NCBI GenBank assembly: GCA_977020255.1
Contig: CDROCS010002657.1
Coordinates: forward strand, 248,001-312,000
Length of the DNA stretch: 64,000 nt
Direction: 5' to 3'
From: Obrimoposthia wandeli
Lineage: Eukaryota
The position numbers and the translations under genes were made by a program. The notes beneath the pieces were generated by a model, which saw only the letters and a program-made list of their open reading frames with translations, was not told the origin of the DNA and did no database searches. Numbering within the stretch: position 1 is the stretch's first letter; each line of letters opens with the position of its first letter. Positions 20,877 to 52,948 of the stretch are shown piece by piece.

Positions 20877-22754
20877 TGTTAGGTTTGAGAATTAAGAAAT
20901 TTAAATATTTTAGTCGATTAAATACTAAAATGGAAATCCTTGAAAGCAAGGTTGAAAATTAAATTAAATATTAATTTTAGTTTTAGAATTGAAATTAGTG
21001 GAAGTTAGGGTAAAAATTAGGAGGACCACGAAGGTCGTGTATAATGTGAGATGTATAAAAGTTAAATTAATTAACCCAAAATTGCAAGATTTAGAGTTAA
21101 TTAAAAGAAAAACGAAGAAAAACGACTAATTAAGAAAGTCGATCAAACCGAAAAGAATATAAATTCCGAGAAGTTGATTGACAAGAACGTCAATTAAAGT
21201 AAGTCCTTTTCGTATAGAGAGTGAAATTAACTTCTTTTCAGCTGTCGATTGATTGACAGACTTGACACTATATAAGTCAGACCAGAACGCACACAACGAC
21301 AGAGTCAACTAGAAAAAGAAAAGGTAACGAAGGAAATCAATATCTCCGACCGACAATCCACCACGAATCGGTAAGTGGTGATCGAAAACTCTGTAGATTA
21401 AAATTATTTTAGATTTTTAGTCGACAGTAATTGAAGGCAAATATCGAATCCGTAATTGAAGGCAAATATCGAAACCGTAATTGAAGTTAAATATCGAAAC
21501 CGAAATTGAAGGCAAATATCGAAACCGTAATTGAAGTTAAATATCGAAACCGAAATTGAAGGCAAATATCGAAACCGTAATTGAAGTTAAATATCGAAAC
21601 CGAAATTGAAGGCAAATATCGAAACCGTAATTGAAGTTAAATATCGAAACCGAAATTGAAGGCAAATATCGAAACCGTAATTGAAGTTAAATATCGAATC
21701 CGTAATTGAAGTTAAATATCGAAACCGAAATTGAAGGCAAATATCGAAACCGTAATTGAAGGCAAATATCGAAACCGTAATTGAAGTTAAATATCGAATC
21801 CGTAATTGAAGGCAAATATCGAAACCGTAATTGAAGTCAACCGCCAGACTCGCAAGCGCTCCATACGGATCCTGCATCGGACATCCCACTAGTCGCAGTA
21901 TTTGGTAAGCCAACCGACTAGAGCATTCATTGCCCCTAGTTGGCAATTAGGATACCTTCATTACCCCTTGTTGGTAATTCTAAATTTTAACCTGTTAAAT
22001 AGATTCATTGCCCCTAGCTGGCAATTAGGATTGCTGACTCTTTAACTCAATCATTGCCCCTAGTTGGCAATTAAGATCATCTATTCTATTCATTGTCCCC
22101 AGCGACAATTAGGAATGATACCGATCTTTTTCCCGTAAGACTCATTGTCCCTAGCTGACAATTCGGTTCATTGTTAGTTGACACCATTGTAGTTGACAAT
22201 TCGGAGTAAGTTTTCATTGTCATCTTTGACAATTAGGTTTTTAGGAGACCCATTGTTCACAGTGGACAATTCGGGGTCAAACACACAGCAGATAGAGTTA
22301 AGGAATCAAGAAACTTTATCTAGATATAAGAAGTAGGAGCGAAGAAATTTAAGAGAGTTGCGTTATAGATTAACCAACCTAAGTAAGAAGAATAAACCTA
22401 AAAGCTTAATCACCTGAACGTAAAATCGATACGTGGTTCATCCCCACTTCTTGTAGAGACTTACAGAAGTCCTAGGAATTTTATCATACTTTTTAGAAAA
22501 TACGTACCTAAACGTATTGTTGTGTTAGTTACGTGAATTACAAATAAACAATTTCCTACATTAAAACAAGTTGTTTTTGCACCCTTCAGAATAAGAGACA
22601 TCAAATCAAATACCTTCAGATAGTACAAGAGATTAGGCAACCATAACACTAAGTAGGCCACGACCAACTTTAAGACCTGCTTCTAATCGAACTCACGTTG
22701 GGGCCCTCCGCATTCAAGAGGATCTGTACCAAGTTTCGTATAGAAACCCCAACA
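20877..22754 (+). mobile_element. Solo LTR (1,878 bp), related to the LTR at 59717-61020
   Basis: TGTT...AACA termini, 4-bp TSD TAAG. Shares 5' blocks (AAATCCTTGAAAGCAAGGTT) and 3' blocks (AAAATCGATACGTGGTTCATCCCCACT...TAGAAACCCCAACA) with the second LTR. Orientation is assumed. Confidence 0.9.
21427..21838. repeat. 25-bp minisatellite, ~16.5 copies, inside the solo LTR
   Basis: Unit (T/A)AATTGAAG(GC/TT)AAATATCGAA(A/T)CCG with starts at 21428, 21453, 21478; two variants alternate over much of the array. Confidence 0.95.
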
Positions 22755-30110: not shown

Positions 30111-30868
30111 TGATGATAATTTCGTGATAATTCAAAACAGTGACTCAATAACCACAAATTCCAATAGAAAATTAAATAGAATAATGAAATAAGTATTCTC
30201 TGAACAATTGCTTAGATTCAAGTCGACATTCTGATTACGTAATATTTCTGTTGCTAAGAAGTCGAATGAATAATTGGCCGGTGAATCGTGTTGTGTCTTC
30301 AATTTTCCCGCGTGCATTTGAATGATCCGGTGTAAAGTTGTATTTCATATCGCATTAGTTCACACTTGCTGTCGTTAGCAGTTATAATTGTGTGTCGAAA
30401 AGGAAATTCCTGCACAGCGAGGAAATTATTAGATAAAAAAGAATAAAGTTTCAGGATTGTGACTTTTAAATAAAATATATTTCTCTTTTTTGCTGAAGCA
30501 AACACAACACAGACCCAATTCTGACAGATATTTTAAATAAAGCAAAATTATTTCAAATTGAATGTTTAACTCTTTGGATTGCAAAAGATTTAAGCACAAA
30601 AATTCGCTCAAAAATTACAGACAAAATCTGAGTAACAGTTTAAATGCACTGGAGAAAATTTCCACTTTCATTTAAAACATCCGCGATAAAGAGAGAATTA
30701 TTTTATCTAGATGACCAAATGATGGAGATAACTAAATTATTTCATCAGAAAAATAAAAGTTAAATTATTTTCGTAAGGACTCCAGTGACATAAGCAGATG
30801 TTGACAATCAAATCTCTGAAGGTCTCGAGGCTTACACAAATTATGTAAATTCATTTGGAATTTGGGCG

Positions 30869-31173
30869 TTCCAGATGCAGAGGGGAAATTGTCGATGAGT
30901 TGTCTCCCCTCTAGAAAGGTGCTAAATCTTCCAGATGCAGAGGGGAAATTGTCGATGAGTTGTCTCCCCTCTAGAAAGGTGCTAAATCTTCCAGATGCAG
31001 AGGGGAAATTGTCGATGAGTTGTCTCCCCTTGAGAAAGGTGCTAAATCTTCCAGATGCAGAAGAGAAATTGTCGATGAGTTGTCTCTCCTCGAGAAAGGT
31101 GCTAAATCTTCCAGATGCAGAGGGGAAATTGTCGATGAGTTGTCTCCCCTCTAGAAAGGTGCTAAATCTTCCA
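30869..31173. repeat. 60-bp tandem repeat, ~5 copies
   Basis: TTCCAGATGCAGAGGGGAAATTGTCGATGAGTTGTCTCCCCTCTAGAAAGGTGCTAAATC repeated with few substitutions. Confidence 0.97.
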
Positions 31174-31691
31174 TATGCGTAACTACGAGCGGTGGGGTTT
31201 GCGAACGCTTCATCGTTTAAAAAATTAAATAACTCGAAATAGTAAAACGCTATTATGTAATGTCTCAAATGGCAACAATCCCAGTCAAAGTCGTTTTTAT
31301 AATAACGGACATATTTCAGAATGTTTTTGATATTTACCAATCCCGACTCAAGATTCTCTCTGGGCTATTCATATAATTCGCTCATTCCATGCCTTTGTCT
31401 CTCCGTTCGAAGATGTTTATAACGCAACTTGATAGAGAACGTATTCAATATATTTGAAATTCGCTATCCTGGCTATGCTGGTTACAACAGTTTATTGAAA
31501 TTGAAGCCCAGGTCCGGAGATACAACCATAAGCTAGTAATTAATACAGTCAAAATGTCGTAGTGAGACAGGTGCAACAAAAATCTCAGAAGATCAATAAT
31601 AAAAATAAGTAAAAGTAGGCAATAATTATCTACAAAAGACACCTCCCCATCTTTATGACTGCTATTATCACTTCTAGACGACCTCCACAAC

Positions 31692-34619: not shown

Positions 34620-36232
34620 ATCTAGCCTCCATCCAAAAGTCGTTCCATGTTTCAATGCATTTTCTCCTTAGTATCACTGGCACTGTCTTAACGCTATGAA
34701 TGCGCGTGCCTTCCGTTGTTTGTCTTTTATTACCATTGTTTGACCTTCTATTCTCCCCCCCCCCTTTATCGTGTAGAAGCCAGTGATGCTCTTCGTGGCA
34801 TCCATATGTCCGACATAACCGATTAAATCTACACTTCTCCACCGTGTGATTACTGCGTAAGCAATTCTTGCATATTTTCTCTCTCTCGACTCACTTCTGC
34901 TTCGCTGCCACTGTCAACTGTTTAACCTGCTCACATTGATCAGTATAGTGGTTGGCTCTACATTTTGCACATTCTGCCTTTCTCTCGACTATTGTGGACT
35001 GGTTTATAACCATTTTTCATTTCATTTACTATTCGAAAATAATGTGTGAGTGTAATGATGTGTGTCATTGTTCCATCTCCTAGGTTTTTCAACGTCACTG
35101 GCTTGCTTTCTTTGATTCTCACGACTTTCATTAACCTTATTGGCTTTTCTTAGATTCTCACTTTCTTTCTGGGCCCATATCTTTAACGTACATACATTCT
35201 CTTTCTCCCCGTTTTGTTGGATCCACTTCGTCCAATCCATCACTCCTAACATTGGCAACTTTCTCAACAGCTTGTTGAAAATAAACCAATTTCCAAGATC
35301 ACCCTTGTTGTCTTCTTCTCTTGCTCTGATTACTATCTTGTTTATTCATTGTAAAAAGGCGTCCAGATCTTGGTCTTCTCTCCATCTTATCACTCTAAAC
35401 CTTTCAACTTCGTCCATCAAACCTCTATAATTTCTTTCCCTTCCTCCGTACCTTTCTTCTAGCAATCTTAAAGCTTCATCGTAACTTGCATCCGTGAACC
35501 CAAGGTTTTGAATTAATCTGTAAGGTTCTGCCTCACATACTCCATCAGCTGCAGCATCTTTTCTTGCTTTGGTGCATTGGTCTGATCGATCACAGTACCA
35601 AATATTGCCCTCTAACTTTCATAATCCTTATAATCACCAAATAAATATGGGATACTAATCTTTTTTAGCCCCTTCCACACATTTTGGCCTGACATATTTT
35701 CTCTTGATTCTTGATTCTTATTTTCTCTTGACTCTTTTGTGGTTCTAACCTCAAATTCCTTTTCTGCTTTTGCTATTTCACTCTTTATCTCCTTTATCTT
35801 GAGTTGGTCTTTGTTTTCCACCGCCTGCTCCAAATCTCTGTTCTTCTGGTCACTGAATCTTCGTACGATATCCCTATATATCTTTCTTATTCTGAATCCT
35901 CTTCCGTATTCCGTGCTTCTGTCCATTCATCGCCAGCCAATATTATCTTCAACCTCATAACCCTCTCCGCCCTCTCATTGTTTTCCTCCCACATTCCCCC
36001 TTTCAACCTCATCATCACGACAATATTGCTGCCATCACCAATGCTCTCCCACATCTCCACTCTCTTTCCATGTCGTTGTAACCAGCAACTCTCCTCCTTT
36101 AACCCATATCGCTTCTGAATCTCCTCCATTGCGTCCTTTCCTGTGCAATTCCGTTTCAAGGGCACTACATTTATATGTCCCCCTATACATAAAAAGTACT
36201 GTCCCGCATCACTACATCCTCTAGTTGGCCTA
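34620..36232 (-). pseudogene. BEL/Pao Gag (ubiquitin-like domain, coiled coil, DUF1759-type region, three Cys/His knuckles); N-terminal part at 52703-52423
   Basis: LKKISIPYLFGDYKDYES*RAIF; EPYRLIQNLGFTDASYDEALRLLEERYG; CAKCRANHYTDQC; CKNCLRSNHTVEKC; CRTYGCHEEHHWLLH (BEL signature). Several stops and frameshifts. Confidence 0.85.
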
Positions 36233-37060
36233 AGTAGGTAGATGTGACACTTCTGGAACAAAGCCCCCCCCTGAGGACAAGCTCAGGTCAAGTTGAGGAC
36301 AAAAAATTTTAAGGTCAAGTTGAGGTCACGGTGAGGTCAAGATGTAGGTCATGACCTCATGAGGTCATGACCCCCCCTATGCTTAGGAAAAATGTCTTTG
36401 TCCTGAAAGACACACATCAAGTAGGGGGATATTTTTTTTTGAGCATACCCCCCCCTTGAGCACAGTTTAAGGTCACGATGAGGACATGACCTCATGAGGT
36501 CAACTTAAGGTCACGGTGAGGACAAGATGTAGGTCATGACCTCATGAGGTCAAGTCAAGTTAAGGTCAATGTACTTTAAGGTCAACTTAAGGTCATGACG
36601 TCATGAGGACAACTTAAGGTCACGGTGAGGTCAAAAAGATTCTATTTTTAGTAACATACTTTAAATCTATATATATTTTTATCTAAAGGTGGTTTTAACA
36701 CCAATTTAACAAAATACATCTCGTGTGTGTGTTTTATAATTTATTTAAAATATCTACTTATAAAATAAAGTATTATATAATTTGATAATCATGTTTAAAC
36801 GTTCCTATATCTATCTAACAAAGACAGTCACGCATCTATATTGCAAATACTTGCATCTTTATGTAATCAATAGTAACATTTATTCTTATACATGTATATA
36901 TGTGTGTGAGTATCTAACAAAGACAGTCACCAATACCTACAAAGACAGTCACGTGTGTGTCTAACAAAGACAGTAATCAATACCTACAAAGACAGTCACG
37001 TGTGTCTAACAAAGACAATCATCAATACCTACAAAGACGTACTGCATCTATATTGCAAAA
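36233..37060 (+). repeat. Left TIR of the Polinton
   Basis: Matches the reverse complement of 51717-52422 at the tip and in the inner AT-rich part; the middle AGGTCA array differs. The inner limit is approximate. Confidence 0.85.
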
Positions 37061-37170
37061 ACCTGCAAATTTATGTAAATAATTTTTAAAATAAAGACAA
37101 GTATTTCTAACATATATATTCCTTAAAATCACAAAGGAGAATAAAAATATGTACAACACATATAAAAAGT

Positions 37171-40100
37171 TTATACAACCTCGTCCGGGTATAAAAAGTG
37201 ACCATAGGCGACTGAACGGTTTTTCTCCACCCACTTGCGCTTATCATCACTACTGCTTAAGGCAATTTTACTTAACCTTACAGTAAAAAGTTGATGATTT
37301 AGCGAGCTTATACGTTGTTGTTGTACACGCTCGCTAACGCCACTCTTATAGACAGCTAAGTAATTAGAGTGCCTAATACTCGTCTGTCGGAGACTAATAC
37401 CTTTCGCTCTCATCTGAGATTCACCTTCTGTAGTCTCTAGGCTATATGATTTTGGTCGTAGAAAAATCCCTTGCCTATAACTAAATAATCCCTTAATATC
37501 ATCTTTAAATTTTCCTATCGCTGTATTAAGCGTCGTATAAAGCGGATGGGTTTTTGGAAATTTCGAGGTATCCAACAGTCCATCAGCAATCATAGCAGGT
37601 AACAGTGATTCTTGAACATTGACATTATTACACTTCAAGAAAAATCTATCAGTGTCACCCGCTATAATTCTAATGTCGCAGTTAAATTGAACTCGATATT
37701 TCTCCAACTGCTCATATTGTAGCTCATACATACGAAGTTTGCTTAAATCTAATACCTCCTGGCCCATGTAACTAGGACGATCCAAAACAATATTTTCCTT
37801 ATCCAGTAAAACTGCAATAAGGTCCGTATCGATTTCGATTGTCCTACGAAAGTGGGCTTTACTGCAATAGGTAACCAGCTTCTGTGGAGTATTACAAATC
37901 CGGAGGTTAATTCTTTTCATCAGATTCTCAATGAGTTTTCCAAATAAAGAATTCACCTTCAGTTTGTAGTAATCCCGCTCGAAATCTGTTGTAACCGCAG
38001 CTCTTTTGAGAGAATTATCCTCAATATATTTTGAAAAAACATTAGTTTGTTCAAACTGTATTGCTCTATATACAAAATCTACCTTAGCACCAAGTCTAAC
38101 GTACATTTGTAGCAATCTAGAATGCACAACATAATGTTTCTTAGGGTAATGTGTTAATAACAATTTTTCAGTCTTACACCCTGGTGGACTCTGTTTAATT
38201 GGAGCAAGGGGAAGATCGTCGAATTTATTATGAAGCTCGTTGGGAATGGATAAATCTATTTCCAATAAATGAGCGAAGCGACTACAGGATAAATCTACTG
38301 ATTTTAAGCTGGAAATAATATTCCCCAACTCTAACCGATCAGTCACCCAGGAAAAGTTACCACAAGGTAAAAACTGGGACATAGCCCACCCGTACAAATT
38401 ATTTACATCAATGTACAAATGTTCTGTACCATTGATGGCGTCCACTATGGTGTTCATTAACAAATGTCATACCCCCGCATATCCCGGGCCGGAAGAGTCG
38501 GTACATTTCTGGATCCTGTATTAGCTCGACTCGCACAACGGGAGCAGAAGAAGAAGCCGGACGAAGCAGGGATTTGAAAGCACTCGCGAAATTCAGTCCT
38601 GGAAATAAAAACATTTATTAAAATCATTGTGAAAATCATTGTGAAAATCATTACTTTGAAAATCATCTATCTAACAAAGACAGTCACGCATCTATATTGC
38701 AAATACTTGCATCTTTATGCAATCAATAGTAACAAGTACTACATTTATTCTTATACATGTATATATATATATGTGTTAGTGTCTAAAATTAGAAAAAAAT
38801 AGAAAAATACAAACCAGGGATGGAGAAGAAATTGAGTGGCTCCAATCCATCGTCAGTAATGGCCTTGGTCCGGAATGCTGTAAACACGTATGCTAGAAGG
38901 TATACGTCTATCTTCATATAGACCAGCATATAGTCCCAGAGCGATGAGCAGCCGCTCTGAGTCCAGACCATCTTCGCCATTTCATATTGTGCTGGCTTGA
39001 TCTTCTCATCCCACTTTGGCGGTAAGCTGGTGATTGCGCGAAGAGCAGTCTCTGATACTGCCATATTGTATGGGAAGATTCCCTTGGCGCTCACCAGATG
39101 TTGCGGGAAGACCGAATGTGTAAGAGGAGTCACACCCAGGTTTTCCACAAGTTTTTCAAGTCTGCTGTTCAAAAATTGAAGGGAATCGATGAAACGTATA
39201 CAGACTCCTCCAATATACACCATCATAGCCTGGAATTTCTCTGTTGATTGAGGTATAACAGATACATTCCAGTCAGGAAACTTGCACGGTGCGTGCTTCA
39301 ATATGTGGTGCATATGTAACCCATAAGATTGTGAAAAATGACGGGAAAAGACCGATTGATTCTCCTTGATAAGTTGCATTTCGTATGCGCTGCTCCCAGG
39401 TATTCGCCAGTCATGTGATCGTGATCTCGAACTTTGTTTGTGAGTTTCTTCTTACACAGGTAACAGATTCTTGCTGCATTGAAACTCGATACCTGTTCCT
39501 GTGTGAGTTGTCGCATCACCTCGATCGCATGCTTCTTGTACCATGGGAGAACAACCTCTTTCGCCAAGTCCTCTAATTTCTGCAAAAAGTATACCACACA
39601 AGATTCCCCGGTAAAGACCGAGTAATCATGTGTATACCCTCTCGTGGCTGCAACGGGAGACATGAGCATACCGGCCGAGATTGGAAGCTGAATCTGATGG
39701 TGGATTCCATGCGGCGGTAGCACAGCCTCAAAGTCCGCGTAAACAGCAAAAGGTGGAGAAATCGTTTTCAAAAAGTCCTTAAACTCAATATGCTTCTCTG
39801 TAGGCATTGAATAAAGTGTTGTATGATCTAAATTCATCCTACAGAGCGGAACGTGTTTGGCGTAACTTATCGGACTACGGAATCCATGAAGACATTTATG
39901 GCACCAAGTACACCGAATGCAATTAGATACACCTTTGTTCCTATAATTAAGCAGCCTATTGAGTTTAGGAATACCGATATAATGAAAATTATCATTATTT
40001 TCTAAAAGGAGAAGATTGATTGGTTTAGCGTCCGGGTTTGTGGTCCTGTAAATCACATCCACATAGGGATTTTTGAAGATATCCCCATCTGTTTGCACAT

Positions 40101-40791
40101 TAGAGAACCTATTGAATGTAAATACGTTGATTGAGAGAGATGGATTCTTTCTCTCAAATCGCGGTATATTACATAGACGCATCGGCATCTCATTCTCATC
40201 AAAAACTAACTGACTCAAAAAGGCATCATATTGATTAACCCGATGAGGATTAGAGCGAAATACTTCACGGAAAAGTACAGATAAGATACTGTAAAGGAAG
40301 CAAAAAGCGTTTGAGTTCTGCACATTGATAACGCAATGTGAGAGTGCTAACTCAGATGGAGTAGGTATATAACTACTTCCCTGGAGATAGTTCATTGTTG
40401 TTTTAGTCACAACAAACGAAATCTCCAGGAAGCGGTTCACTACCCAATTACTACTACTTTGAGAATAATTCTCAATCTTCTTGTTGATCCCATCTACTCC
40501 CGCATCTATAAACCCCTCATCTATGGGGAGCCCTCTATTGGAAAAATTCCAAGCGCGTGTTTCTCCAATATTGGAAAATTCAACACGCACCCCGAATTGA
40601 ACCTTGCAAGTTGCAAACATGCTGACTGTGTCCCTTAAGCTAGTCAAAAGTGATACAGGAACTTGTAAATCGATGAGATTGTCATTAGAAACATCTAATG
40701 ACAATGTCTCAATCGTGCCCCGAAGACTAGTCTTACGCTTAACAGCATCAACCCTGAAAAACTTCGCAACATAGCTACCTGAAGTGGGCAT
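37171..40791 (-). pseudogene. polB: Protein-primed family B DNA polymerase with one intron (38599-38814) and two 1-nt frameshifts (~39316, ~38450)
   Basis: Exo motifs YADFE, FHNLMGY(D), YMKID; polymerase motifs YIDVNNLYG, KLKVNSLFGK, GDTDR (usually DTDS), PKSY, AKGI. Also an endonuclease VII-like CYLC...RDHDH...HTKCN segment and an N-terminal OTU-like Cys (FCFLY)/His (FHY) region. Confidence 0.95.
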
Positions 40792-40800
40792 AACACTTCT

Positions 40801-41242
40801 CTAACGGGTAGATGCTGGTAACGGCGCGGGGATCATACCAACTGGAGGAGGCATAACTGAAACCATTGGTGCAGCAGATGATGGTGAAGCAACTGGGGTA
40901 GTAACAGCAGCAGCAATTAAGGTAGCAATTGACGAAGCAGCAACAACTGGACCAGCAACCCGAGAAATAGTAGCAGATCTATTCTGAAAGATGGCCTTCT
41001 TGCCACGTTGCTGGAAATGACGAAGATGGACACGATGACGCGCCACAAACTCCGGCCAATCAATCTCCTCCGCGGAGAGACATACTGGACATACGTAGAA
41101 TTGTTGTCCTTTGAACTTCTGTCCAAAGTAGCTCTTCATTTTTCCGTCACATTCCTTGTGACTCTCCTCGAAGCATTCTTTGTTCATATTGCAATTCTAG
41201 AAAGAAATAAATTAGCTGAAAAAATAACAATAAACTTACCAT
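40801..41242 (-). CDS. Small Cys/His-rich Polinton protein with Pro/Ala/Ser-rich tail; probable 43-nt intron after the ATG
   Basis: ATG(41242-40)|GTAAGT...TTTCTAG|AAT TGC AAT ATG joins in frame with ORF 40801..41187; CPVC motif; TATATAAGC upstream. Confidence 0.65.
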
Positions 41243-41373
41243 TTTCAATTTCGTTTATAATAGGGGATTATTTGTTGATTGATGCTTGCTTATATACTAT
41301 TTTCGAGCTAGTATTAAGCCAATCAGATTCATACATTATTTAAACCAACCAGATTAATTTAAAACAGAATAGT

Positions 41374-41883
41374 TTACTGACAGATGTGAGTAGTTGAATT
41401 TTCATTAATATTTAAATAATCCAAACTAGCTGCAAAGCATTTCTTGTATGCACAATGCTCGCCATGTTTAATATATGGACAATTGATATTTGATGGATTT
41501 AATTGTTTTAATGTTTTCGAGTAATTTATCACTCTAAATTCAGGAAAATATTTATTGATTGTCTTTATTTTAGCTCCATTATTTTCATCCAAAACATAGA
41601 AAATTGATTTGGATACATCACAACAACGTTTTATTTCCTCAGTTATTTCTTGTATCTTGAAATAACTATTACCATCAACTAGTTTTAATCGATGGTAATG
41701 CTTAATGAGATATCTATTTATTTTTCTTGATTTTCTATTCATCATGTCCCATATGGGTTGCTTTTTAAAAACATAATGTTTGGGATAGAAGATTGCATCC
41801 ACATCCATTATACATAGTTCTTTTATTACAAATTCAGTATTATTATCAATAAAAGCTTCAAAATCAATAAAATAAACAGACAT
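41374..41883 (-). CDS. DEDD/DnaQ-like nuclease-fold protein with C-terminal Cys/His cluster
   Basis: N-terminal YFIDFEAF (D-x-E) followed by IKEL, and C-terminal CPYIKHGEHCAYKKC. Intact ORF of 169 aa. The fold call is motif-based only. Confidence 0.55.
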   Translation of the reverse strand: MSVYFIDFEAFIDNNTEFVIKELCIMDVDAIFYPKHYVFKKQPIWDMMNRKSRKINRYLIKHYHRLKLVDGNSYFKIQEITEEIKRCCDVSKSIFYVLDENNGAKIKTINKYFPEFRVINYSKTLKQLNPSNINCPYIKHGEHCAYKKCFAASLDYLNINENSTTHICQ

Positions 41884-41920
41884 TTTTTATAGCAATAATT
41901 TTGTTTGATATTGTTTATAT

Positions 41921-42298
41921 CTATTGTTTATGCTTTAACCAAAGCAGACATAGTTGTCCACATGAGTGCGTTAAAACATTTTGATAATGTTTCTTACTAA
42001 AATGTACTTTCTTTCCAGAATCAAGTACTGTAGATACTAATTTAGAAGGGTAATATATCCCAAAGGGGTCAAAAACAAAGATTTCATTTTCTTTAACATG
42101 TATTGCAATCCAATGTTCACCACGCAAATTAGATGAATGTGTATTGATTACATATCCACCTAGTCGAGTCAAAGAGGGGATGTGATCAAGACTGTAGACT
42201 CCATTGAAATGCGAACCGAGTAGTTTTCTTCCGCTTTTTGTTATCTCGTCCGAACTAGAATATATATTAATTAATAAATTCAAACTGATTTACTTCAT
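41921..42298 (-). pseudogene. Adenain/Ulp1-like maturation cysteine protease
   Basis: GEHWIA (His), FDPFG (Asp), YQ...SCGQLC (Gln/Cys). The in-frame ATG at 42298 is followed by TAA at codon 3. Confidence 0.9.
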
Positions 42299-42327
42299 TT
42301 ATATCTTCTTTATTGTTTTCATTCTGT

Positions 42328-43537
42328 TTATACTAGTACTGTTCCTCCCTTGGTAATTTGAACCTCAGAATCGAATACTCCATAGATTATAATATTAGTA
42401 GGATGTTCAAGTGCTTTTGAAAACTTGATTTCTACTTTCAAATTTCCCTGTTTAGGGATTTGAGCTTGATTAATATCGAAATCAGGAGAGAGAACAAATG
42501 TGAACAGTGTATACTTGTCCTTGAAATCAGTCATTGAAATTCAAATATTAGCATCCTTATCCAAATGACCAAGATTTCTAATTAAAGATTGCACATAAGA
42601 AAACACATAATCATCGTTTTCAAAGTCATTCGTATAAGATTCTTGATAATCAATATTTCGTGCAAGTTTAATTGAACTCACATTCATGTGTCCAAATTGA
42701 GAAACCTCATTTTTAGACTCACCTCCATAGGTAGAAGTGTTTTGGAAAGCAATTAAAACAAAGTTTGGAAGTTGCATATCACCAAAAATCTGATCCCGTA
42801 GGGATAGCGTTAGAAACAAGATTAGTTTTTCTAATAGGATAACATGCATTTTGCTTCTCCAACCCTATTCGATGTGCAACGAGTACAGATGGTTCCACCT
42901 TTACTCTTCGAACCAGCAGTTTTGCTTCCGTAATCTCAATTGCGGTTTTAATAGTATCGTCGTAAACAACACTAAAACCTACTGGATTTCTCTTCATTCG
43001 AATATGTGCACTTACACCGAGTAAAAGATACTTTGGTTGCTTAAAGAAATCCAACTGGAGACTCCCACAAAGTGACAATACTTTAGACTTTGCAATCGAA
43101 GCAGTTCTTCTTTTTTCATCATTGTCAAACCCAATTGCATCAAGATTAATCAATTTCGTATCATTACCGTAATTCAGTAATGTTTCAATCATTGCTTTAT
43201 GAGTGTAGCTAGTATTATTTCCCTCAACTTTCACATTATTGAGACTGAGAATCACATCCTTGAAAAGAGTATGCAACATGTAATTAGCTGATTTGATATC
43301 CATACCATCATCCAAATCACCTCCACCTTCCTTTGTAACTTTCAATTTAACGAGAAATAAACTATCATTCAAATCAAGATATTGAGTATTGGATCAATTA
43401 ATATTGAATTCTAAATCCGGAGAAGATGTCCCGTTAACCGTATTTGTCGGACATATTTCTTCAAAACTAGCACTATCAACCACAACCTGAGGTATAGGTT
43501 TATCAAATATACACAATTCAGTTTTAGCACAACTCAT
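42328..43537 (-). pseudogene. Major capsid protein (double jelly-roll)
   Basis: MSCAKTELCIFDKP...LEFNIN*SNTQYLDL...FKDVILSLN...AMIETLL...AKLLVRRV...FTFVLSPD...IYG. In-frame TGA at ~43395 and ~42541, and a frameshift at ~42790. Confidence 0.9.
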
Positions 43538-43899
43538 TACTTAAAAATTGTTCCACCTAGTTTCAAACGTTTGTTTATACCCGATGCTTTAGATGTTTTC
43601 TTACGTTTATAACCACTTCCCTTTTGAGTTTTCTTTTTCAAAAATTCAGCTAGACTTGGTGAAATTTCATTCACCTGATCCAAGGCTGCATCCTTTAGTG
43701 TGGGAAGAAATTTCTCATCACTTGACAAGTATTTTGATCCAACATTAGCAATAAATTTCCCGAGTCGCTTGAGTAGTGGGAAAGCAAAGCGACCTAAAAC
43801 CTTCATCCATCCTGATCCATACTGTTTTCCCGCAAAATAAGGCAAATCACCTCCTTGCATCGGTTTACTATACGCATCGATTATACTTGAATCAATCAT
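43537..43899 (-). CDS. Small basic virion protein with amphipathic helix (between minor and major capsid genes)
   Basis: QGG...FAGKQYGSGWMKVLGRFAFPLLKRLGKFIANVG...QKGSG; position and Gly motifs as seen in Polinton structural modules. Confidence 0.7.
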   Translation of the reverse strand: MIDSSIIDAYSKPMQGGDLPYFAGKQYGSGWMKVLGRFAFPLLKRLGKFIANVGSKYLSSDEKFLPTLKDAALDQVNEISPSLAEFLKKKTQKGSGYKRKKTSKASGINKRLKLGGTIFK

Positions 43900-44918
43900 A
43901 ATTTACGAAAATGAACCGTTAAACTTGTTTTAGCTCCGTAAGCAAATGTAATTAATCTTCCAGAATCATTACGTATATTAACTTAAATATTGTTTATAGA
44001 AGAAGAACTCACGGGAATATACTTTGGATTTTCAATTGGAATATGTATAACATCACCATACTTGTGCTTTTCCTGTTGAACCCAAATTGCTTTAATTAAG
44101 AGAAGTTTCCTTCCTCCTACGAATATTGGTTCGGTAATACTCGTGTAGATATAAATCTGATTATATGCATTAGTCATTTTAGGAAAAATCTTTGCTTTGA
44201 AAACCTCATTTTTATTTTCAAATTCATTTTCATCAAAACCGATAATTGAGGCTAATTATTTATCCATGATGATTTTATCAATATTGGATTTCAATTTGAA
44301 ATGAATCAATTTATTAACTAGTTTAAAGTTTTCAAATACATTTGGTAACACTGTTTTAAAATGTTTACACATACTTTTGCTATCGGCAAAAAGAAAATCA
44401 TTGGGAACTGAATATATTTTCCTCTCGCGTTTAACGAATCTGTTTTTTATCTTGAATGTAATTATCGGATACTTGACATGATTATCCATAATTTGTGAAA
44501 CTGCATGATTTCCTTTTTCAACTTTAGACGGAAATCCATATTGTTCTGCAACAATTTCATCATTAAAAATTATTTCAAAATTATCCCCTTTTTCCATAAT
44601 TTGAATTTGATTCTCTTTATTTAAATAGATTGTGAAATCATCGCCTGACTTAATACGAGCCAAATCCATTTGACCCTTATCAAATAGTGAAGTCACATCA
44701 GTTACTTTATCAGCTTCACGTTGGGTAATATATTCAATCTCAGTTTCACTTTGAATAGATAGAGGAGAGTAATTGAAAGAAAATTCCGTAAGAGCAGCTT
44801 CCCAAGCACCAGGTAAATTGATTGAGCTTTGATAATCAATACTAAAACTATTAGCAGTATTATTCGGCTGATTTAATGGCGAACCATTACTTGGTAATAC
44901 AACATACGTTGAGTTCAT
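43896..44918 (-). pseudogene. Minor capsid (penton-like) protein
   Basis: YVVLPSN...NNTANSF...INLPGAWEAALTEF...IYIYTSITEP...YIPV...I*VNIRNDSGRLITF...LTVHFRK. In-frame TAA at ~44256 and ~43983. Confidence 0.85.
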
Positions 44919-45886
44919 TCTATTTGAGAAGCTAATATCCAACTAGGTTCAGTATATCCATGCCACTTAACATGATATTGTTTATGCTTTCCTCTACCTT
45001 TTGTCTCTAAAATTTCTTGGATTCTATATACATTCGGTTTCTCAGACAAGACTTGTAATTCCTCATGATAAAATTTACCCGTGATTACATTATTGGTTTC
45101 ATCCTCAATGAAATACATTACCGGCACACGTTTATTATCAATTTTAGTTATACGAAATACTTCATCGCTCCAATTCTCTTTGAAATTCTTTATAAAAGGA
45201 GTAGTACTAATTTGAGAAATACGTACATAATCACCAACTTTATACTTGGGTTTCCGTGCAACTTGACTTTGGTTACGGCGTTGCCAAATTTCCATAGCAT
45301 TCTCATCTGTAACATCAACGGGTCTCTTTCGGTCTAATGATGAGTGTTCACTATGATTGTATGCATGTATTATTTGAGGTAAAACAGTAACCCAGGACTT
45401 ATTTCCCTGCTTTGTGAAATACTTTTTCAAACGATCTCTCAATGTTCGATTAAAACGTTCAACTAAAGCGGCTTTATATTGGGAAAATACTGAGTAATGA
45501 TTAATATTATGTTTTTTCAATAGTGTTTCAACATGTTTATTATAAAACTCCTTTCCACTATCCGTTTGGAAATTTCTTGGTTTTATTTCTTTAATCAAAA
45601 GCTTCATTGCGGCTAAAACATAGGTACCAGACTTAGACTTTAATGGAATAGCTCGCGCGAATCTGCTAAAGACATCAACACAAGTTAAAATATATCAATA
45701 TCCGTTGTTAATACTAGCATACGGAATCATTTCCATCAAATCTGCTTGCCATAAATCATTCGGGCCGCTCGTTTTGTATGATCTCGTTGGGAACCGACGT
45801 CTCATTGGTTTGTTTAAGCTGTAAGCTAATTTTGAAACCCCTTTGTAACCAACGGGGTGACTTGGATCGAACCATATTTTCTCCAT
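44915..45886 (-). pseudogene. Retroviral-like DDE integrase with C-terminal chromodomain
   Basis: WQADL, QTDSGKEF, VERFNRTL, and YHVKWHGY...SW (chromodomain). One in-frame TGA at ~45695. Confidence 0.95.
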
Positions 45887-45983
45887 TGCAGTAAGACGAT
45901 TTGATTTTTAAATTATATTTAGGAATAGATGGAAGTGATCCCATATATAAATTCATATTATTGATTCGAATTTATGTTTATAA

Positions 45984-46406
45984 TCATCGGTTTATTAGTC
46001 TACTAGCAAGTGCACCAACTATTGAGCTAATAATTGGTACGAGAAATCCTAAAAATCCACCACTTTGCTTATAAAGCAACTTACGTTTACCGATTCGTGT
46101 TTTGGCGTGAAACAAAGCAAGTAGAGGTTTCTTATGCCGATTCAGGTTAGCCTTGACAATTATTTTACCAGAAACTATTTTCTGTATCATATTAAGTAAA
46201 TCATCAATTACAAAAGTAGGGAATGATTTAAGAATAGCTGGGCGGCGAATAGCAGGTGCACGCATGAGAAAATTGAAATAGGCAATACTCCTAGATTTCT
46301 TAACAACAGTTCTTTTCGATTTTTGAGCAACCATTTTCCTTGCACTTAAAACTGATTTAATCAATTTTTTAACTTCGGGTTTAACAGTTTCCTTTTTAAA
46401 ATTCAT
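45984..46406 (-). CDS. Basic core/virion protein
   Basis: Lys/Arg-rich, ending KRKLLYKQSGGFLGFLVPIISSIVG, a typical Polinton small structural protein tail. Confidence 0.7.
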   Translation of the reverse strand: MNFKKETVKPEVKKLIKSVLSARKMVAQKSKRTVVKKSRSIAYFNFLMRAPAIRRPAILKSFPTFVIDDLLNMIQKIVSGKIIVKANLNRHKKPLLALFHAKTRIGKRKLLYKQSGGFLGFLVPIISSIVGALASRLINR

Positions 46407-47054
46407 CTTCTCAAAACTGGTTTCTTTGTTTGTTTATAGACGGTTATTCCCGATGGATTGAATACATCAGTTCTAACTCTAAAGTCATCGGGACAATCTT
46501 GAGTAAAAATCAATAAAAATGTATCCATGAGGAATAGTAGTTGCATCTTGAAATGAATCAATTAAAAACTTTCTATTATTCGGGTAAGCTTGTCTTGAAA
46601 CAAAATCAACAATCGTCTGATCACGTGGATTCTTGAAGAGAACAAGATAATGTACATTTAAATTACGAGTTCTATGGTTCCCTCCTTGATGAAATAGATT
46701 TTGTGTGATGAAAATAACAGTTACTTCCCGATGTCGTGCTATTTTAGTGAATAAATTATTGAAATCACTCTCTTTATTTGCTTCTTGATATAAATCATCA
46801 ATAACAATAACATCATGTCGTTGTAATCGCTCAGACCAATTATCATCGAATCCATTAATGACTTTTATATTTTTGATTTTCTTAAACTCTTTACTGGTTA
46901 AACCAGCTTCTCCATCTCCTCCCTGCTTCCAATATATTTTATTAAACTTAAAGGTAAAGTATTTATTATTTTGTAGTAATTTACATACAAAATGTGTTTT
47001 CCCACTACCACTAGGACCTACAATCTGAAAAACTGAATTATTTTCTAAGTTCAT
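46403..47054 (-). pseudogene. FtsK/HerA-type packaging ATPase
   Basis: GPSGSGKT, VIVIDDL, ARH...ITQNLF, LFKNPRD. An extra T in a T-run at ~46505 shifts the frame; the corrected tail DFTQDCPDDFRVRTDVF...LRR* ends at 46403. Confidence 0.95.
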
Positions 47055-47097
47055 ATTAAAAATATTAGATTATCGGAATAATGTTTATAAGACAAAA

Positions 47098-47382
47098 CTA
47101 TTTAAAATATTTTATTACGAAACATCCAGCAACAAACAATAAAAAACTCTTCTTGTAGAAAAAGCTCCTTTTCTCTTCTTTCTTTGCACATTCTTTCTTC
47201 TGATTGTATCCATGAATGAGAAGATTGACTGCCTTGTCATGCACCATTCTTCTTACGTGCTCCTCCAGGGGTAGATTTGAGACATCAATGAGTTGCAGGA
47301 CATCTGGTTCTATGACATTCTTCGAGATGAAGCTCTTCACCGCCTTGTCAACATCTTGCTTGAAATAGTTTGGAGTAGACAT
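47098..47382 (-). CDS. Orphan ~94-aa helical protein with C-terminal hydrophobic tail flanked by lysines
   Basis: The ATG at 47382 sits 30 nt after TATATAAGC; the protein ends FFYKKSFLLFVAGCFVIKYFK. Confidence 0.65.
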   Translation of the reverse strand: MSTPNYFKQDVDKAVKSFISKNVIEPDVLQLIDVSNLPLEEHVRRMVHDKAVNLLIHGYNQKKECAKKEEKRSFFYKKSFLLFVAGCFVIKYFK

Positions 47383-47443
47383 AATGATGATGAAGAAGTA
47401 AAAAGTAATCTGCTTATATACTATACATCTGAAATCTGATTGG

Positions 47444-47580
47444 TTAATAAAGACTAATAAAGACACTGACTAATAAAAACACTGACTAATAAAGACACAA
47501 AGACACTGACTAATAAAGACACTGATTAATAAAAACACTGATTAATAAATACACTGATTAAAGATAAAGACGAATAAAAT
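47444..47580. repeat. ~16-bp tandem repeat (GACACTGACTAATAAA), ~7-8 degenerate copies
   Basis: Directly visible between the 47098 ORF promoter and the phosphatase stop codon. Confidence 0.85.
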
Positions 47581-48306
47581 TTACACATGATAACGATTAA
47601 AAATACGTATTTGATGAAGCATAGCTTCATTAGGAGCAGCAATAGTCCGTTTAGCTTTAACAAGATTCGAAGCAGCAGTAACACCAATCGAATGAGATAA
47701 AAATGCAATAACAATGCAAGCAGCATGTAAACTACCATAATGACTACATACTAAAATCTTACCACCATTTTCGATAGTTTCTTTAATTATATTATTAGTC
47801 TGTTTATAATACTTCATTATTGTTTCTCCTAATTTTGAGTTTACAAAGACAGAAGTATATTTTAATTTCTTATAAGATATTTTATCCAGTATAGATGTAT
47901 TGATTACATGAGTGAAATTGGAGTTCAAAAGATTAGTTTCATCAAACCCATCTCGATAATTATCAATATATAATTGATTTACTAAAATCTCACTCATCAC
48001 GGTTTTGTTTAACTTTTCTACATTATGTTGAGTAAATCTAGCACTAAACAAGCTATCAAAAAGATGGGTCATGTGGTTCATTTCCATACTCGAAGCATGA
48101 GCTATTATGGGTTCCATAAAAGCCAAAGCATTTAAAAAATCTATCCGTCTCTTATCTTCAATAATTGGATCTATAATAATTTCTTCTTCTATCGTCACTT
48201 CATCAATAGTTTCTTCTCTTCTTATAACTGTTGTTGTTGTTGCTGGTGATGATGTTGTTGCTGGCGATGATGTTGCGGCTTCTGGTGCTGAATTGATTTT
48301 CTCCAT
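47581..48306 (-). CDS. Dual-specificity phosphatase-fold protein, catalytically dead
   Basis: MSEILVNQLYI...THVIN...GGKILV-CSHYGSLHA-ACIVIAFL...VKAKR...PN...HQ. The HCxxGxxRS loop is replaced. Confidence 0.85.
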   Translation of the reverse strand: MEKINSAPEAATSSPATTSSPATTTTVIRREETIDEVTIEEEIIIDPIIEDKRRIDFLNALAFMEPIIAHASSMEMNHMTHLFDSLFSARFTQHNVEKLNKTVMSEILVNQLYIDNYRDGFDETNLLNSNFTHVINTSILDKISYKKLKYTSVFVNSKLGETIMKYYKQTNNIIKETIENGGKILVCSHYGSLHAACIVIAFLSHSIGVTAASNLVKAKRTIAAPNEAMLHQIRIFNRYHV

Positions 48307-48626
48307 TTTATCAATTCCCAGTCAATTTAGTCTTATATATATATTAAACGAGGTTTAATTTCATAGGAGCATCAGTTTCATCATATGATTTGATTGGAGT
48401 ATTATTCAACCTTTCCATTGTACTTAACAACTCATGTAAATGTATTTGATGACGTAACCTAAAGAGTTAAATAAACTACATATAAATATTACTCATGATT
48501 ATTTTTCCTAATTAAAGCATTGAGAATAACTGAAGCAAGATCTTTTAATGCATCCTGAACCTCTTTACATTCAATAATTTCATTCATTTTATGATAAAGC
48601 AAATCAAATATTGTTTATAACCCATG

Positions 48627-48845
48627 AAAAATCTATTTTTAGAGCACATTACAACTATTTGCAACATTACAACGTTTGCAACTATTTGCAAGTAATGACA
48701 TGTGATGTCTCTAAGAGAAATCTATTTTTAGACCACATTACAACTATTTGCAACATTACAACGTTTGCAACTATTTGCAAGTAATGACATGTGATGTCTT
48801 TGTCTCTAAGAGAAATCTATTTTTAGACCACATTACGACTATTTG
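48627..48845. repeat. ~90-bp internal repeat, 2.3 tandem copies; a further copy at 50467-50537
   Basis: AAATCTATTTTTAGACCACATTACAACTATTTGCAAC...GCAAGTAATGACATGTGATGTCT. Confidence 0.9.
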
Positions 48846-49363
48846 GTTTAGGAAATAAATAACACAAGTGTGGAGATCTATATTAAATAAAATACATTCA
48901 ATCAGATACTCATAGTTTAAAGATTTAAAACCAAGTATCATAATCTTCCCGCTAGCAAAAATGTTCACGCATAGGGGATTGTATTTGATGTATCGAAGTC
49001 CCGGGAAGATTTCTGGCTCGTAAACAGCTTCCGATCCCATACTCTTGCTCATCTTGTTTAGGTTTATTGATGTTTCTAGCTTGCTGCTGAGACTGATTGA
49101 TTGCATTCTTTCGATTTTTATATCAAAAGGAAGACTGCTTTCATCCCGCACTGTTTTGCAACCCATTATTCTGCATGTACCTAAATTATAATTATATATA
49201 AATGTAAAAATAAATTACCAGATTTGAAAATGATAATAGTGTAACCTTCACACTTGAGTCGATACTGATGAGGCTTCGAAGTCCGAAATGGTAAGTGTTG
49301 AATGTTACTTACAACCATTCCCTTGTAATTAATATTCACTAATTTGATATTGTGAAGTAGCAT
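48771..49363 (-). CDS. TATA-binding-protein-like (two TBP repeats), two exons 49363-49219 and 49180-48771
   Basis: Splicing the 38-nt GT-AG intron gives IIFKSG|TCRIMGCK, parallel to the repeat-2 segment NIFASGKIMILGFK. YEPEIFPGLRY matches TBP YEPELFPGLIY. Confidence 0.88.
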
Positions 49364-49426
49364 TTCTGATTATTATAAACTGATTTCTTCTATTTATACT
49401 ATTTGAACATCTATTTTTAGATTTGT

Positions 49427-50423
49427 TTAATTGCCTATGCTATGAAATCTAATATTTCTTACTCGTCTAATGATAATTGTCTTGCAATATGGACATGTAA
49501 TAAAACGATCTGAACATTTAATACACGTGTTTAAGTGACCACATGGTAAAAATGCCACGGAAATCGCATCGCTCATGCAAACAACACATTCGGGATTTGG
49601 TAAGAGGTACTCAAGATAATTTATCCGATGTGTTGGTTCAGATTTTATTTCTAAAGACCTTAAATCCGTTATAAACTCATATATAGAATCATATTTGTTA
49701 CCGAATGTTTTAAACCTATTAACTAAAACGGCTTTGATTCTATCATGACTGTAATCACGTTTCAGCAAAACTATTTGACGAGTTTCCATCTGAGCATCAA
49801 TGTCATCATTACTAATATGATATTCAACAATACATCCGTTCTTGATTCCCATACTAGATGCTTTACAATCTCGAGTATGAAAGATAAGACATAGTATCAA
49901 TAAGGTCAAGTCGGGGTACTGCTTTCCGACAGAAACAACATCGATAAGAATCATTCCAAATATATACATGATCGAAAATCGATAATGTAGGTATTTCAAT
50001 ATCATTAGAATAATTATTGCGTGCAATAACAACTTTATCCATTGGAGTTGTATCAAAATCAATTTGGGTGGTGCTGGAATCAATTATTGGTACGTTTGAA
50101 ACATTCATTTTCAAAACAAACGGACATCTTGGGAAAAAGAGCTGATGCTGTTTCATTGGTTTCAGATAGTACTCCCATCCCGATATTCCTCCCTGACAGT
50201 AAATACACTTTACATTATCTTTCGAATCATCGTGCTTGTAAAATCCTGCTTTTGCTAAAGCTTTCTTATCGGCTAAACCAGTAAACTTTGTTTGTAACGA
50301 TTCTAATCTTCTTTCTTCATATATCATATTTTCATTTATTCTTGAAATATTATCAAAACGCCGTCGTCTAATGGTGAGTTCTCCGTTTTCTGAAACATAA
50401 TGTGCAATAAATTTAGTAGTCAT
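49427..50423 (-). pseudogene. iap: Inhibitor of apoptosis (BIR, UBA-like, RING), one frameshift at ~49885
   Basis: RLES...LAKAGFY...DNVKCIYCQGGISGWE...PMKQHQLFFPRCPFV (BIR); CVVCM...FLPCGHLNTCIKC...CPYC (RING). Confidence 0.92.
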
Positions 50424-50554
50424 AACAAAATTGAATGATGAAATTGTCTAGCTTATATAGTAAGTGAAAATCTATTTTTAGACCACATTACAACTATTTG
50501 CAACTATTTGCAAGTAATGACATGTGATGTCTTTGTCTTAGTATAAACAATATT

Positions 50555-50782
50555 TTGATAATGATTTTATTGAAAATGGTTAATCAAAATAATCAAAATA
50601 ATGAAAGTAGAGCTAGTACATATAAAGGTTCCGGTAGTAATTTATATTCTAATATGAATTATAATAGAAATAATCAGAGAGAAAATATTAATCCATCAAG
50701 TCAAACAATAACAAGTCCTACGCGCTTAACCGAAGAACGTGAGCCCTTTAAGGATATGACTAATACTAGACGATTTTCATAA
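50555..50782 (+). CDS. Small Asn-rich orphan ORF
   Basis: Divergent from iap, with a TATAAA just upstream; low complexity, no recognisable motif. Confidence 0.35.
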   Translation: MIMILLKMVNQNNQNNESRASTYKGSGSNLYSNMNYNRNNQRENINPSSQTITSPTRLTEEREPFKDMTNTRRFS

Positions 50783-50895
50783 ACAAGAATGTTAACCAAT
50801 TGAGACTAATCGATTTTCATAAACAAGAATATCGACTAATTAGAATCGACCTTTAGAGGATAAACAATTGAATATTTCAATTTATAATTGTCAAT

Positions 50896-51276
50896 ATGAA
50901 TTTCGAAAAGCTATATCAACCTATGCATACATATTATGGATATGAGATGCACTTTTTGAAGAAAGCTCATAACTATAATTTTATTTTCCCCGTCAACATT
51001 GAGCCGCTTAAATTTGATTTTGAAATATCAAATTTGACTTCTGTGGATAAAGAGAGAATCAATATTCAATTTGGAATCAACTATGCGCTTCAGGAAAACA
51101 AATTCGTAATCAAAGGATCAACTGCCACTTTCAAGCATGAGAATGGAACAATATACGAAGCACCTCCTCCTAAGCTAGAATGGATTATCTCAATCAGAAT
51201 TCAAGGATGCAAGATCGGGTCCAGTGGATTGGAAACTCCGATATGGAAAATAATTGATGCTGTTAGAGTTGACTAA
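50896..51276 (+). CDS. Polinton accessory protein, predicted beta-rich (possibly OB-fold ssDNA-binding)
   Basis: Intact 126-aa ORF with alternating hydrophobic pattern, ending ISIRIQGCKIG...PIWKIIDA. The function is a guess. Confidence 0.55.
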   Translation: MNFEKLYQPMHTYYGYEMHFLKKAHNYNFIFPVNIEPLKFDFEISNLTSVDKERINIQFGINYALQENKFVIKGSTATFKHENGTIYEAPPPKLEWIISIRIQGCKIGSSGLETPIWKIIDAVRVD

Positions 51277-51340
51277 TAAATTTTTGTGTCTTTATTTGTA
51301 TTATTTTATATATATAAACAATAGTGATACTTTAATATTT

Positions 51341-51712
51341 ATTATGAAAATGACTAAAAAACCTACTAAATCATTAAAGTCGAAAAAGGTTAAAAAGACT
51401 ATGAGTAAAAAGACTATGAGTAAAAAGAAAATCATGGAGGGTTTGGGTATTCATATGATGGCAGCAAATCTTTTAGGTAGATGGTTTGGCGGAGTTGATA
51501 AAAAAGCTATAAAGCACAAAAAGAATGTGGATTACATGAGAGGTATACAAAATCAGAAACGAGTGCAAATAGGAGATGGTATACAAAAAGGGGATGGTAT
51601 GCTTGATATTTTTGTAAAATTAGATAAACTTACAAAAGCATTTGAAAAGGATCCTAGTGCCTATCTTGGTCCAAAACTAAACTTTTTAGCAAACCGACCA
51701 AAAACTTTGTAA
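51341..51712 (+). CDS. Lys-rich basic protein with QxGxG motifs
   Basis: MKMTKKPTKSLKSKKVKK...QIGDGIQKGDG. The start is inferred downstream of a TATATAAA at ~51310; the ORF track starts at 51254. Confidence 0.6.
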   Translation: MMKMTKKPTKSLKSKKVKKTMSKKTMSKKKIMEGLGIHMMAANLLGRWFGGVDKKAIKHKKNVDYMRGIQNQKRVQIGDGIQKGDGMLDIFVKLDKLTKAFEKDPSAYLGPKLNFLANRPKTL

Positions 51713-51716
51713 TTAC

Positions 51717-52422
51717 ATTGCAATATAGATGCAGTACGTCTTTGTTAGACACTCACACATATATATATATATATACATGTATAAGAATAAATGTTACTAT
51801 TAATTACATAAAAATGCAAGTATTTGCAATGTAGATGCGTGACTGTCTTTGTTAGATAGATATAAGAACGTCTAAACATGATTATCAAATTATATAATAC
51901 TTTATTTTATAAGTAGATAGTTTAATTTAGTTTAAATATATTTTTCAAATTATATAATACTTTATTTTATAAGTAGATAATTTAATTTAAATTATAAAAC
52001 ACACACACACGAGATGTCTTTTGGTTAATTGATCTTTTTGACCTCGCCGTGACCTTAAAGTACATTGTCCTCATGACGTCATGACCTTAAGTTGACCTTA
52101 AAGTACATTGACCTTAACTTGATCTTAACTTGCCTTGACCTCATGACCTACATCTTGTCCTCATCGTGACCTCAAGTTGTCCTCATGACTTTAAATAAAA
52201 AATCATGTGTACTCGGGAGAAATTTGACCTACATCTGTCATAAAAAATTTGAGTTCAAAAATTTTCGCGCTAATTTCAAAAATTTTGACCTATATTTCAA
52301 ATTTTTCGCGGAAATTTCAAAATTTGACCTAAATTTTTTGTCCTCATCAAAAAATTTGACCTAGATTTTTGACTTGTCCTCAGGGGGTGGGCTTTGTTCC
52401 AGAAGTGCCACATCTACCTACT
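51717..52422 (-). repeat. Right TIR of the Polinton
   Basis: Inverted counterpart of 36233-37060, with an extra internal duplication (about 51880-51990) and a different TGACCT sub-array. Confidence 0.85.
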
Positions 52423-52948
52423 GGCCTATGATTCCCAATCATATCCCCACCACTGATTGCGCACTTCCTCTCTTGGACTTCAATGCTCGACCTCCATATT
52501 AACTCTTCAACTCTTTCATATCTCCTAGAAATGTTGTATCCACCTTTTCCTGGGGTCACGATCCTTGCGTTTGGATGCACACTGTCCCTGCCCTCAACCG
52601 ACACTGCGAAGCATCCCTGCGTCAGACGTCGTCTATAGGCCTCGGCCAATACCGGCTGAGGTAGTTTCTCGGATCGTGCCTGCCATCCTTTAAAATCCTC
52701 CATATATTCTCCCTCACTTCGTTCCTTAAAACAAACCTGCGATTTTATATTACCAAGTACTTTATCATTACTTCAAGTTGAAAATTGTGGGCACATATGA
52801 GACAACGGCAAGGGGCGGGGAATAAAAACAGTGATCAAGGCCTAACCTCCAGCTGCGACTTGTCCATTACAAAGGGTTCCAGCTGTCCATTTTGTCCCCT
52901 ATATCCAACTTCTGATCCTCTCGCACGACCAATTTGATCTCGTCTTCA

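Follow-up and report, generated by a model that had tools for sequence, protein, structure and literature searches.

How did the polymerase gene of a Polinton come to carry an insert that looks like a spliceosomal intron and, in part, like the element's own terminal inverted repeat (TIR)? The insert interrupts a pPolB gene in the window, the whole 64,000-nt stretch of an Obrimoposthia wandeli contig analysed here. It runs on the minus strand from 38814 to 38599 (216 nt), has GTTTGT at its 5' end and TTTCCAG at its 3' end, and lies in phase 1, directly after NFFSIP. It contains 3, 5 and 11 stops in the three frames, and its GC content is 24%, against 48% in the flanks. The stop-containing GT…AG insert described by the first-pass annotation is thus present as described, and its rejoined reading across the site agrees with the motif NFFSIPGLSW, uninterrupted in the natural open frame of an intronless family of the same genome. 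The annotation was also right that the second Polinton in the window has no insert: its pPolB (58517–63016, plus strand), heavily decayed, of an intronless lineage and 30–54% identical to the first, lacks one at the site. Its central proposal, a recent intron gain with the TIR as the source, fared differently. We put the probability at about four in five that the intron is an old spliceosomal one, gained once, and that one young subfamily carries some 120 nt of its own inner TIR unit between the older splice sites. Rather than a new intron being born, an old one was likely enlarged by self-capture.

Is the surrounding element a Polinton/Maverick? Its long TIRs, AG…CT ends, 6-bp target-site duplication and size within 15–20 kb are those of the group (table 1). 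The pPolB matched PF03175 at E 1e-4 on one fragment, below cut-off; its 143 homologues, up to 55% identical and many of them marked PF03175, place it among the protein-primed family B DNA polymerases. The element also encodes a retroviral-like integrase (PF00665, E 3e-9, 44918–45694), a packaging ATPase (PF04665, E 2.5e-6) and an adenovirus-like protease (PF00770, E 5e-4, just under cut-off). The profile search gave no Pfam match for the major capsid protein; an atlas score of 0.97 to a cluster with PF21738 on 48% of its members identifies it as a double jelly-roll capsid protein. The window element departs from the group in one respect, since its core genes are not intronless as those described in PMC8097293 are; this is a described, not a defining, trait. 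Its cargo genes (47584–50447, minus strand) encode a dual-specificity phosphatase, a TBP-like protein and an IAP (BIR plus RING). Its intergenic repeats at 47436–47586, 48617–48845 and 50448–50536 have short words in common with the TIR unit (79% over 39 nt, a weak match) and are possibly a recurring cis-element. Outside the element are tandem arrays at 21324–21923 and 30809–31238, with periods of 25 nt and 60 nt.

Table 1. Features of the Polinton and of its pPolB intron (coordinates are those of the window).
Feature	Position	Strand	Basis
Target-site duplication, left, 6 bp; identical 6 bp at 52423–52428	36227..36232	+	
Polinton/Maverick, 16,190 nt, ends AG…CT; copy decayed	36233..52422	.	
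Left TIR, imperfect, about 690 nt; partner at about 51738–52422	36233..36925	+	
Innermost TIR unit, source of the TIR piece of the intron; also at 51745–51861	36809..36917	-	
Left subterminal repeat array, between pPolB stop and TIR	36918..37078	-	
pPolB downstream exon, polymerase domain; frame broken near 38480 in the window copy	37171..38598	-	
Intron, 216 nt, phase 1, GT-AG; likely spliced, position old	38599..38814	-	Sequence, relatives, tree, selection
Old 3' intron part: short tandem repeats, T-rich tract, acceptor; common to TIR-less relatives	38599..38664	-	
Captured TIR unit, 122 nt, direct orientation to left TIR, 2-nt overlap at each junction	38665..38786	-	
Old 5' intron part with donor, common to TIR-less relatives	38787..38814	-	
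pPolB upstream exon; in the window copy, frame change near 39300 and stop at 40801–40803	38815..41196	-	
GT-AG intron, 43 nt, just past likely pPolB start codon	41197..41239	-	
GT-AG intron, 39 nt, start of protease gene	42255..42293	-	
Possible GT-AG intron, 34 nt, small unnamed ORF; seen in the window copy	48459..48492	-	
GT-AG intron, 38 nt, TBP-like cargo gene	49181..49218	-	

How much of the insert is TIR? Positions 38665–38786 match 36809–36917 in the left TIR and 51745–51861 in the right at an E of about 1e-38, with ungapped identities of 105/109 and 108/113, respectively. The near-identity of about 120 nt reported at first pass therefore stands, but the TIR-derived part is only the middle 122 of the 216 nt: neither the first ~28 nt nor the last ~66 nt is TIR, and the two splice sites are in these parts. 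Splice sites made by the TIR are ruled out, both sites lying outside the TIR piece and being common to copies that lack it.

Is the insert confined to a single dead copy, or to a faulty assembly? With an 801-nt query, all 40 scored matches (the window and 39 others) spanned the full query at 95–100% identity. In 30 aligned copies the insert measured 211–228 nt, with GT in 29 and AG in 29. Searching the genome located the TIR/intron junction, with up to one mismatch, at 921 sites and the exact donor motif of the family at 1,506, each against a control of 0. In the contigs of four runs the insert was covered at a depth like that of its flanks; none of the 15 joints listed, out of 320, crossed the insert, a result that bears neither way on splicing. 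The 921 junctions and the 40 full-length matches exclude chance, a private insertion and a misassembly. The insert is fixed in a large subfamily. Of 69 fully covered TIR-plus copies (those with the TIR piece in the intron), 12 have neither stop nor frameshift on either covered side; the window copy is decayed.

If the insert is an intron, how old is it? TIR-less copies of the window's family have introns of 49–168 nt with the same 5' and 3' ends, in exon flanks mostly 90–97% identical. They made up 18 of 30 donors sampled regardless of TIR (the other 12 were TIR-plus). A TIR match was present in 25 of 25 TIR-plus introns and in 0 of 65 non-TIR introns at the same site. Beyond this family we compared further Polinton families of the same genome, named for this analysis F2, F3, F5, F6, F7, F9 and F10. 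At least four (F2, F5, F6, F7, F9) have GT–AG introns of 37–120 nt at the same codon position. Their flanking DNA is about 60–75% identical to that of the window family; their intron sequences are dissimilar, alike only in short AT-rich words and otherwise not alignable. Motif searches at this site returned 626 matches for gaps of 25–55 nt (control 0), 643 for gaps of 56–116 nt (control 1) and 588 when GT/AG was not required (control 0); 29 of 30 loci from the 25–55-nt search were pPolB and one was a chance match. The same flanks with a gap of only 3 nt gave 0 matches in the genome, and no intronless member of the clade was found. In one F9 intron (L101, 120 nt), 34 nt are 85% identical to an intergenic repeat of the element that carries it, which may reflect another self-capture at this intron or mere coincidence.

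How are the intron-bearing copies related? The DNA tree of the downstream exon had 43 rows, namely 10 of the first 30 TIR-plus copies and later loci, with duplicates dropped. All 17 TIR-plus rows and two TIR-less rows formed one shallow branch (100/97) within TIR-less diversity, the two being probably recombinants. The upstream exon grouped 15 of the 17 TIR-plus rows with weaker support (90/79). The protein tree (46 rows), built on the downstream part by a quick tree search, took in those 26 of 46 database proteins in which the motif was present; F7 (broken frames) and two other short rows were left out. In it the 11 intron-bearing rows formed one branch (SH-aLRT 100), sister to the intronless F3, among relatives continuous at the site. 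Since the intron-bearing polymerases are one clade, the simplest reading would be one old gain in the clade ancestor, its source no longer visible. The proposal of a recent gain from the TIR thus fails on three counts: TIR-less copies of the same family share the donor and acceptor ends, other families have the intron at the same position, and the TIR-plus copies are nested among TIR-less ones. The first-pass comparison was with a distant intronless lineage, which hid the intermediate states. We found none of the marks of a de novo gain with an identifiable donor, which are splice sites stemming from the donor or from a target duplication, and closest relatives without the intron. Relatives outside this genome are remote: no protein more than 58% identical was found there, the viral contig search returned no relative, and the metagenome contig search returned relatives only at 49% identity or less, the two closest of them continuous at the intron site.

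Is the insert spliced? In copies picked by the TIR junction, the donor GT is kept in 59 of 60 and the acceptor AG in 57 of 60. After removal of 7 truncated copies and 1 duplicate, 91 TIR-plus copies served to examine selection. The variants present in 5 or more of them comprise 76 synonymous, 22 nonsynonymous and 0 stops (pN/pS 0.08); for singletons the corresponding counts are 238:662:59 (pN/pS 0.83; difference p 7e-25). The purifying signal is seen on both exon sides, also without CpG changes, and makes splicing likely. On the other hand, most of the frequent variants (89 of 98) are also present in a set of 44 TIR-less copies, so that much of the signal may predate the capture or enter by recombination. 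Few variants are confined to TIR-plus copies: those present in at least 5 are 6 synonymous and 3 nonsynonymous (p 0.010), and those in at least 3 are 8:15:1 (p 0.34, not significant). Near-fixed differences between TIR-plus and TIR-less copies are 13 synonymous and 3 nonsynonymous. A 1-nt exon deletion is shared by 6 TIR-plus copies, and two other deletions by 3 each. GT…AG ends at a conserved position within a continuous frame, free length, AT-rich sequence and flanking exons under purifying selection are among the properties of a U2 spliceosomal intron. We conclude from these sequence properties that the 216-nt insert is likely removed by splicing; to this extent the first-pass reading as a spliceosomal intron appears sound.

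How did the TIR unit enter, and what followed? The TIR-plus junctions are identical in nearly all copies, with a 2-nt overlap on each side and a few tens of nucleotides of the old middle gone, which points to a single capture event. Fifty-nine measurable introns among 60 copies picked by the TIR junction alone range from 177 to 609 nt, in all three classes modulo 3; at 216 nt, the window's form is a short allele. The left subterminal array is mostly missing at the right end of the element and is present in long intron alleles of other copies. The stretch 37078→36809 lies within two long alleles at 97% identity and within two more at 86–87%, and this ties the long alleles to the left end, in direct orientation. 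As a proven donor the left end holds for the long alleles only; the basic unit is present in both TIRs, so the first capture could have come from either end. The order of short and long alleles is weakly indicated, the long ones being nested in the downstream-exon tree. Six copies run from the intronic unit straight into the TIR without a downstream exon, compared with 308 normal single-unit copies, and their differing TIR tails suggest separate deletions. Some TIR-plus copies have lost the basic TIR unit at their own left end. As a group the TIR-plus copies are younger, at a median of 0.9% from the column yardstick (n = 58) as against 3.0% for TIR-less copies (n = 39). A truncated TIR-plus subfamily (7 of 60 sampled: L188, L196, L201, L207, L215, L231 and L240), in which the downstream exon ends after ~340 nt and joins the subterminal repeat, is likely non-autonomous. 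It did spread, so these elements can spread without a working polymerase.

The course of events we propose builds on two observations: the intron position is common to families with flanks about 60–75% identical and dissimilar intron sequences, and TIR-less and TIR-plus alleles of one intron coexist, with TIR-plus derived. The capture itself may have occurred by template switching or recombination at the 2-nt overlaps during replication of the element, replacing a few tens of nucleotides of the old middle. Lying about 1.7 kb from the left end, the direct repeat so created would keep recombining with the subterminal array, lengthening the intron (up to 609 nt was seen) and now and then deleting the downstream exon. 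The host spliceosome would still remove the enlarged intron, and so the capture would have been tolerated and probably near-neutral.

Might the capture instead have done harm? A real, old intron whose splicing was impaired by the TIR piece would leave a largely non-autonomous subfamily, copied in trans by TIR-less relatives. At 32 nt into the intron, behind a T-rich tract, the capture does create a new AG that might act as a competing acceptor; the selection signal confined to TIR-plus copies is thin, and the truncated subfamily has spread. But no stop is common to 5 or more of the 91 TIR-plus copies, the frequent TIR-plus-only variants and the near-fixed differences both lean synonymous, and both old splice sites are kept, and we regard impairment as unlikely. 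Still less probable is that the unit has a function, either as a signal for replication or transcription or, as a cassette exon with stops, in damping polymerase expression, and helped the youngest burst. The TIR-plus copies are young and numerous (921 junctions), and the 216-nt allele can also be parsed as a 128-nt exon between introns of 32 nt and 56 nt, with an internal AG at 38783 and GT at 38654; no intron as short as 32 nt was seen in these elements, however, the length and unit number of the inserted part differ widely between copies, some TIR-plus copies lack the unit at their own left end, and a single origin cannot separate cause from hitch-hiking. In a broader form, a spliceosome-dependent nuclear Polinton clade would have moved a cis-acting TIR unit into its polymerase intron as an enhancer or dose-tuning cassette exon, which drove the burst of ~900 copies; this too we consider decidedly improbable, if a little less so.

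Could the TIR after all have made a new intron, and other families have gained theirs independently because this site favours introns? The TIR-derived middle does exist and is recent, and the introns of different families cannot be aligned beyond short AT-rich words. For the window family this is refuted, because TIR-less copies have the same two splice sites, neither of which is in the TIR piece; more widely, no intronless clade member was found and the intron-bearing families form one branch, so that the idea is highly improbable. Almost no weight remains for an assembly error, or for insertions that inactivate the gene and have GT/AG ends by chance. The decay of the window copy would agree with either, but the inserts of hundreds of copies in many families have a single position and phase, GT-AG ends and unconstrained length, and lie between exons under purifying selection; three more position-conserved GT-AG inserts lie in other genes, and the contigs of four runs cover the insert at a depth like that of its flanks. 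We return, then, to an old intron enlarged by self-capture.

Are there other introns in the element? One similar to the 43-nt intron at the start of pPolB is present in F2, F6, F7 and F9, and none was seen in F3. The protease intron is at the same position in all sampled families that have the gene, F3 included. The intron of the TBP-like gene is at the same position in F9 and absent in F3; the gene itself also occurs, with or without its intron, in elements of F3, F6, F9 and F10. Against this, the three host introns read by eye in chaperonin genes are GT-AG and about 80–110 nt or longer, none as short as the 34–45 nt of the element.

How do these introns compare with known systems? In ordinary intron lengthening, repeats are inserted or slippage occurs while the splice sites stay intact, and length then drifts freely. 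The present intron is alike in that foreign sequence entered between intact splice sites; it differs in its donor, the element's own TIR and subterminal array, and the resulting direct repeat can therefore delete a catalytic exon. Adenovirus E2B polymerase and pTP messages have a very short upstream coding exon. As there, an intron here splits the start codon or a few codons from the polymerase body; unlike there, it is about 43 nt long and directly adjoins the gene body.

The Polinton/Mavericks of animals, vertebrate (PMC8097293) and nematode (bioRxiv 10.1101/2022.07.12.499685), share with the window element pPolB, rve integrase, A32-like ATPase, adenovirus-like protease, double jelly-roll capsid, TIRs and the 6-bp duplication. 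As far as the consulted portions of these two papers describe them, intact vertebrate Mavericks have no introns and nematode Mavericks have them in cargo genes only, whereas here pPolB and the protease have position-conserved GT-AG introns. Polinton-like viruses of dinoflagellates likewise contain spliceosomal-type introns; according to the consulted part of PMC12166617 these are mobile introners, mostly acquired after integration. The introns of the window clade differ in that each is at one inherited position and varies in sequence between families. All 60 junction-picked loci were pPolB, family introns were dissimilar, and no spread to other sites was seen among the loci sampled. The consulted sections of PMC8502044, PMC10748475, PMC12220804, PMC11296320 and 10.64898/2026.07.28.741278 contain nothing on spliceosomal introns in core genes. 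In the literature listings and opening lines of abstracts searched, we found no report of inherited introns in Polinton pPolB.

What follows from this? What looked like an intron gain whose donor could be seen is no longer one. The consulted part of PMC3488318 describes the sources of new introns as poorly known. The age of an intron cannot be read from a donor match inside it; close relatives have to be sampled. It is likely that the whole of this Polinton clade needs host splicing to make its polymerase and protease, and this dependence would imply nuclear transcription. Surveys based on open reading frames that assume Polintons without introns, as the consulted parts of PMC10120064 and PMC9356565 do, would miss such elements or score them as dead. 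The ~900 TIR-plus copies are also a record of repeat-mediated expansion, contraction and exon deletion inside a replicating element.

The Polinton load of this genome is very heavy, with 24,443 first-look candidates for PF03175, and an intronless family contributes many open frames of about 1,240 amino acids. One mosaic element (L164+L165, G000:C38:113500-133499) has most genes 90–98% identical to those of the window's family, but its pPolB (64–76%), minor capsid (42%) and TBP-like gene (65%) derive from other lineages. This suggests that modules were swapped; the right TIR of the element contains a piece of pPolB. Two separate loci (L156+L157 and L162+L163) each hold, within ~11.5 kb, a single capsid gene between two pPolB gene blocks that are inverted and point towards one another; the blocks are of different families and about 70% identical. 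The arrangement is either a hybrid element with a polymerase at each end or a set of nested insertions. Beside the intron-bearing CCT genes of the host, some 20 intronless open frames of ~550 amino acids (e.g. L181-L187) match PF00118 over its full length; mobile cargo and retrogenes are candidate origins for these chaperonin frames.
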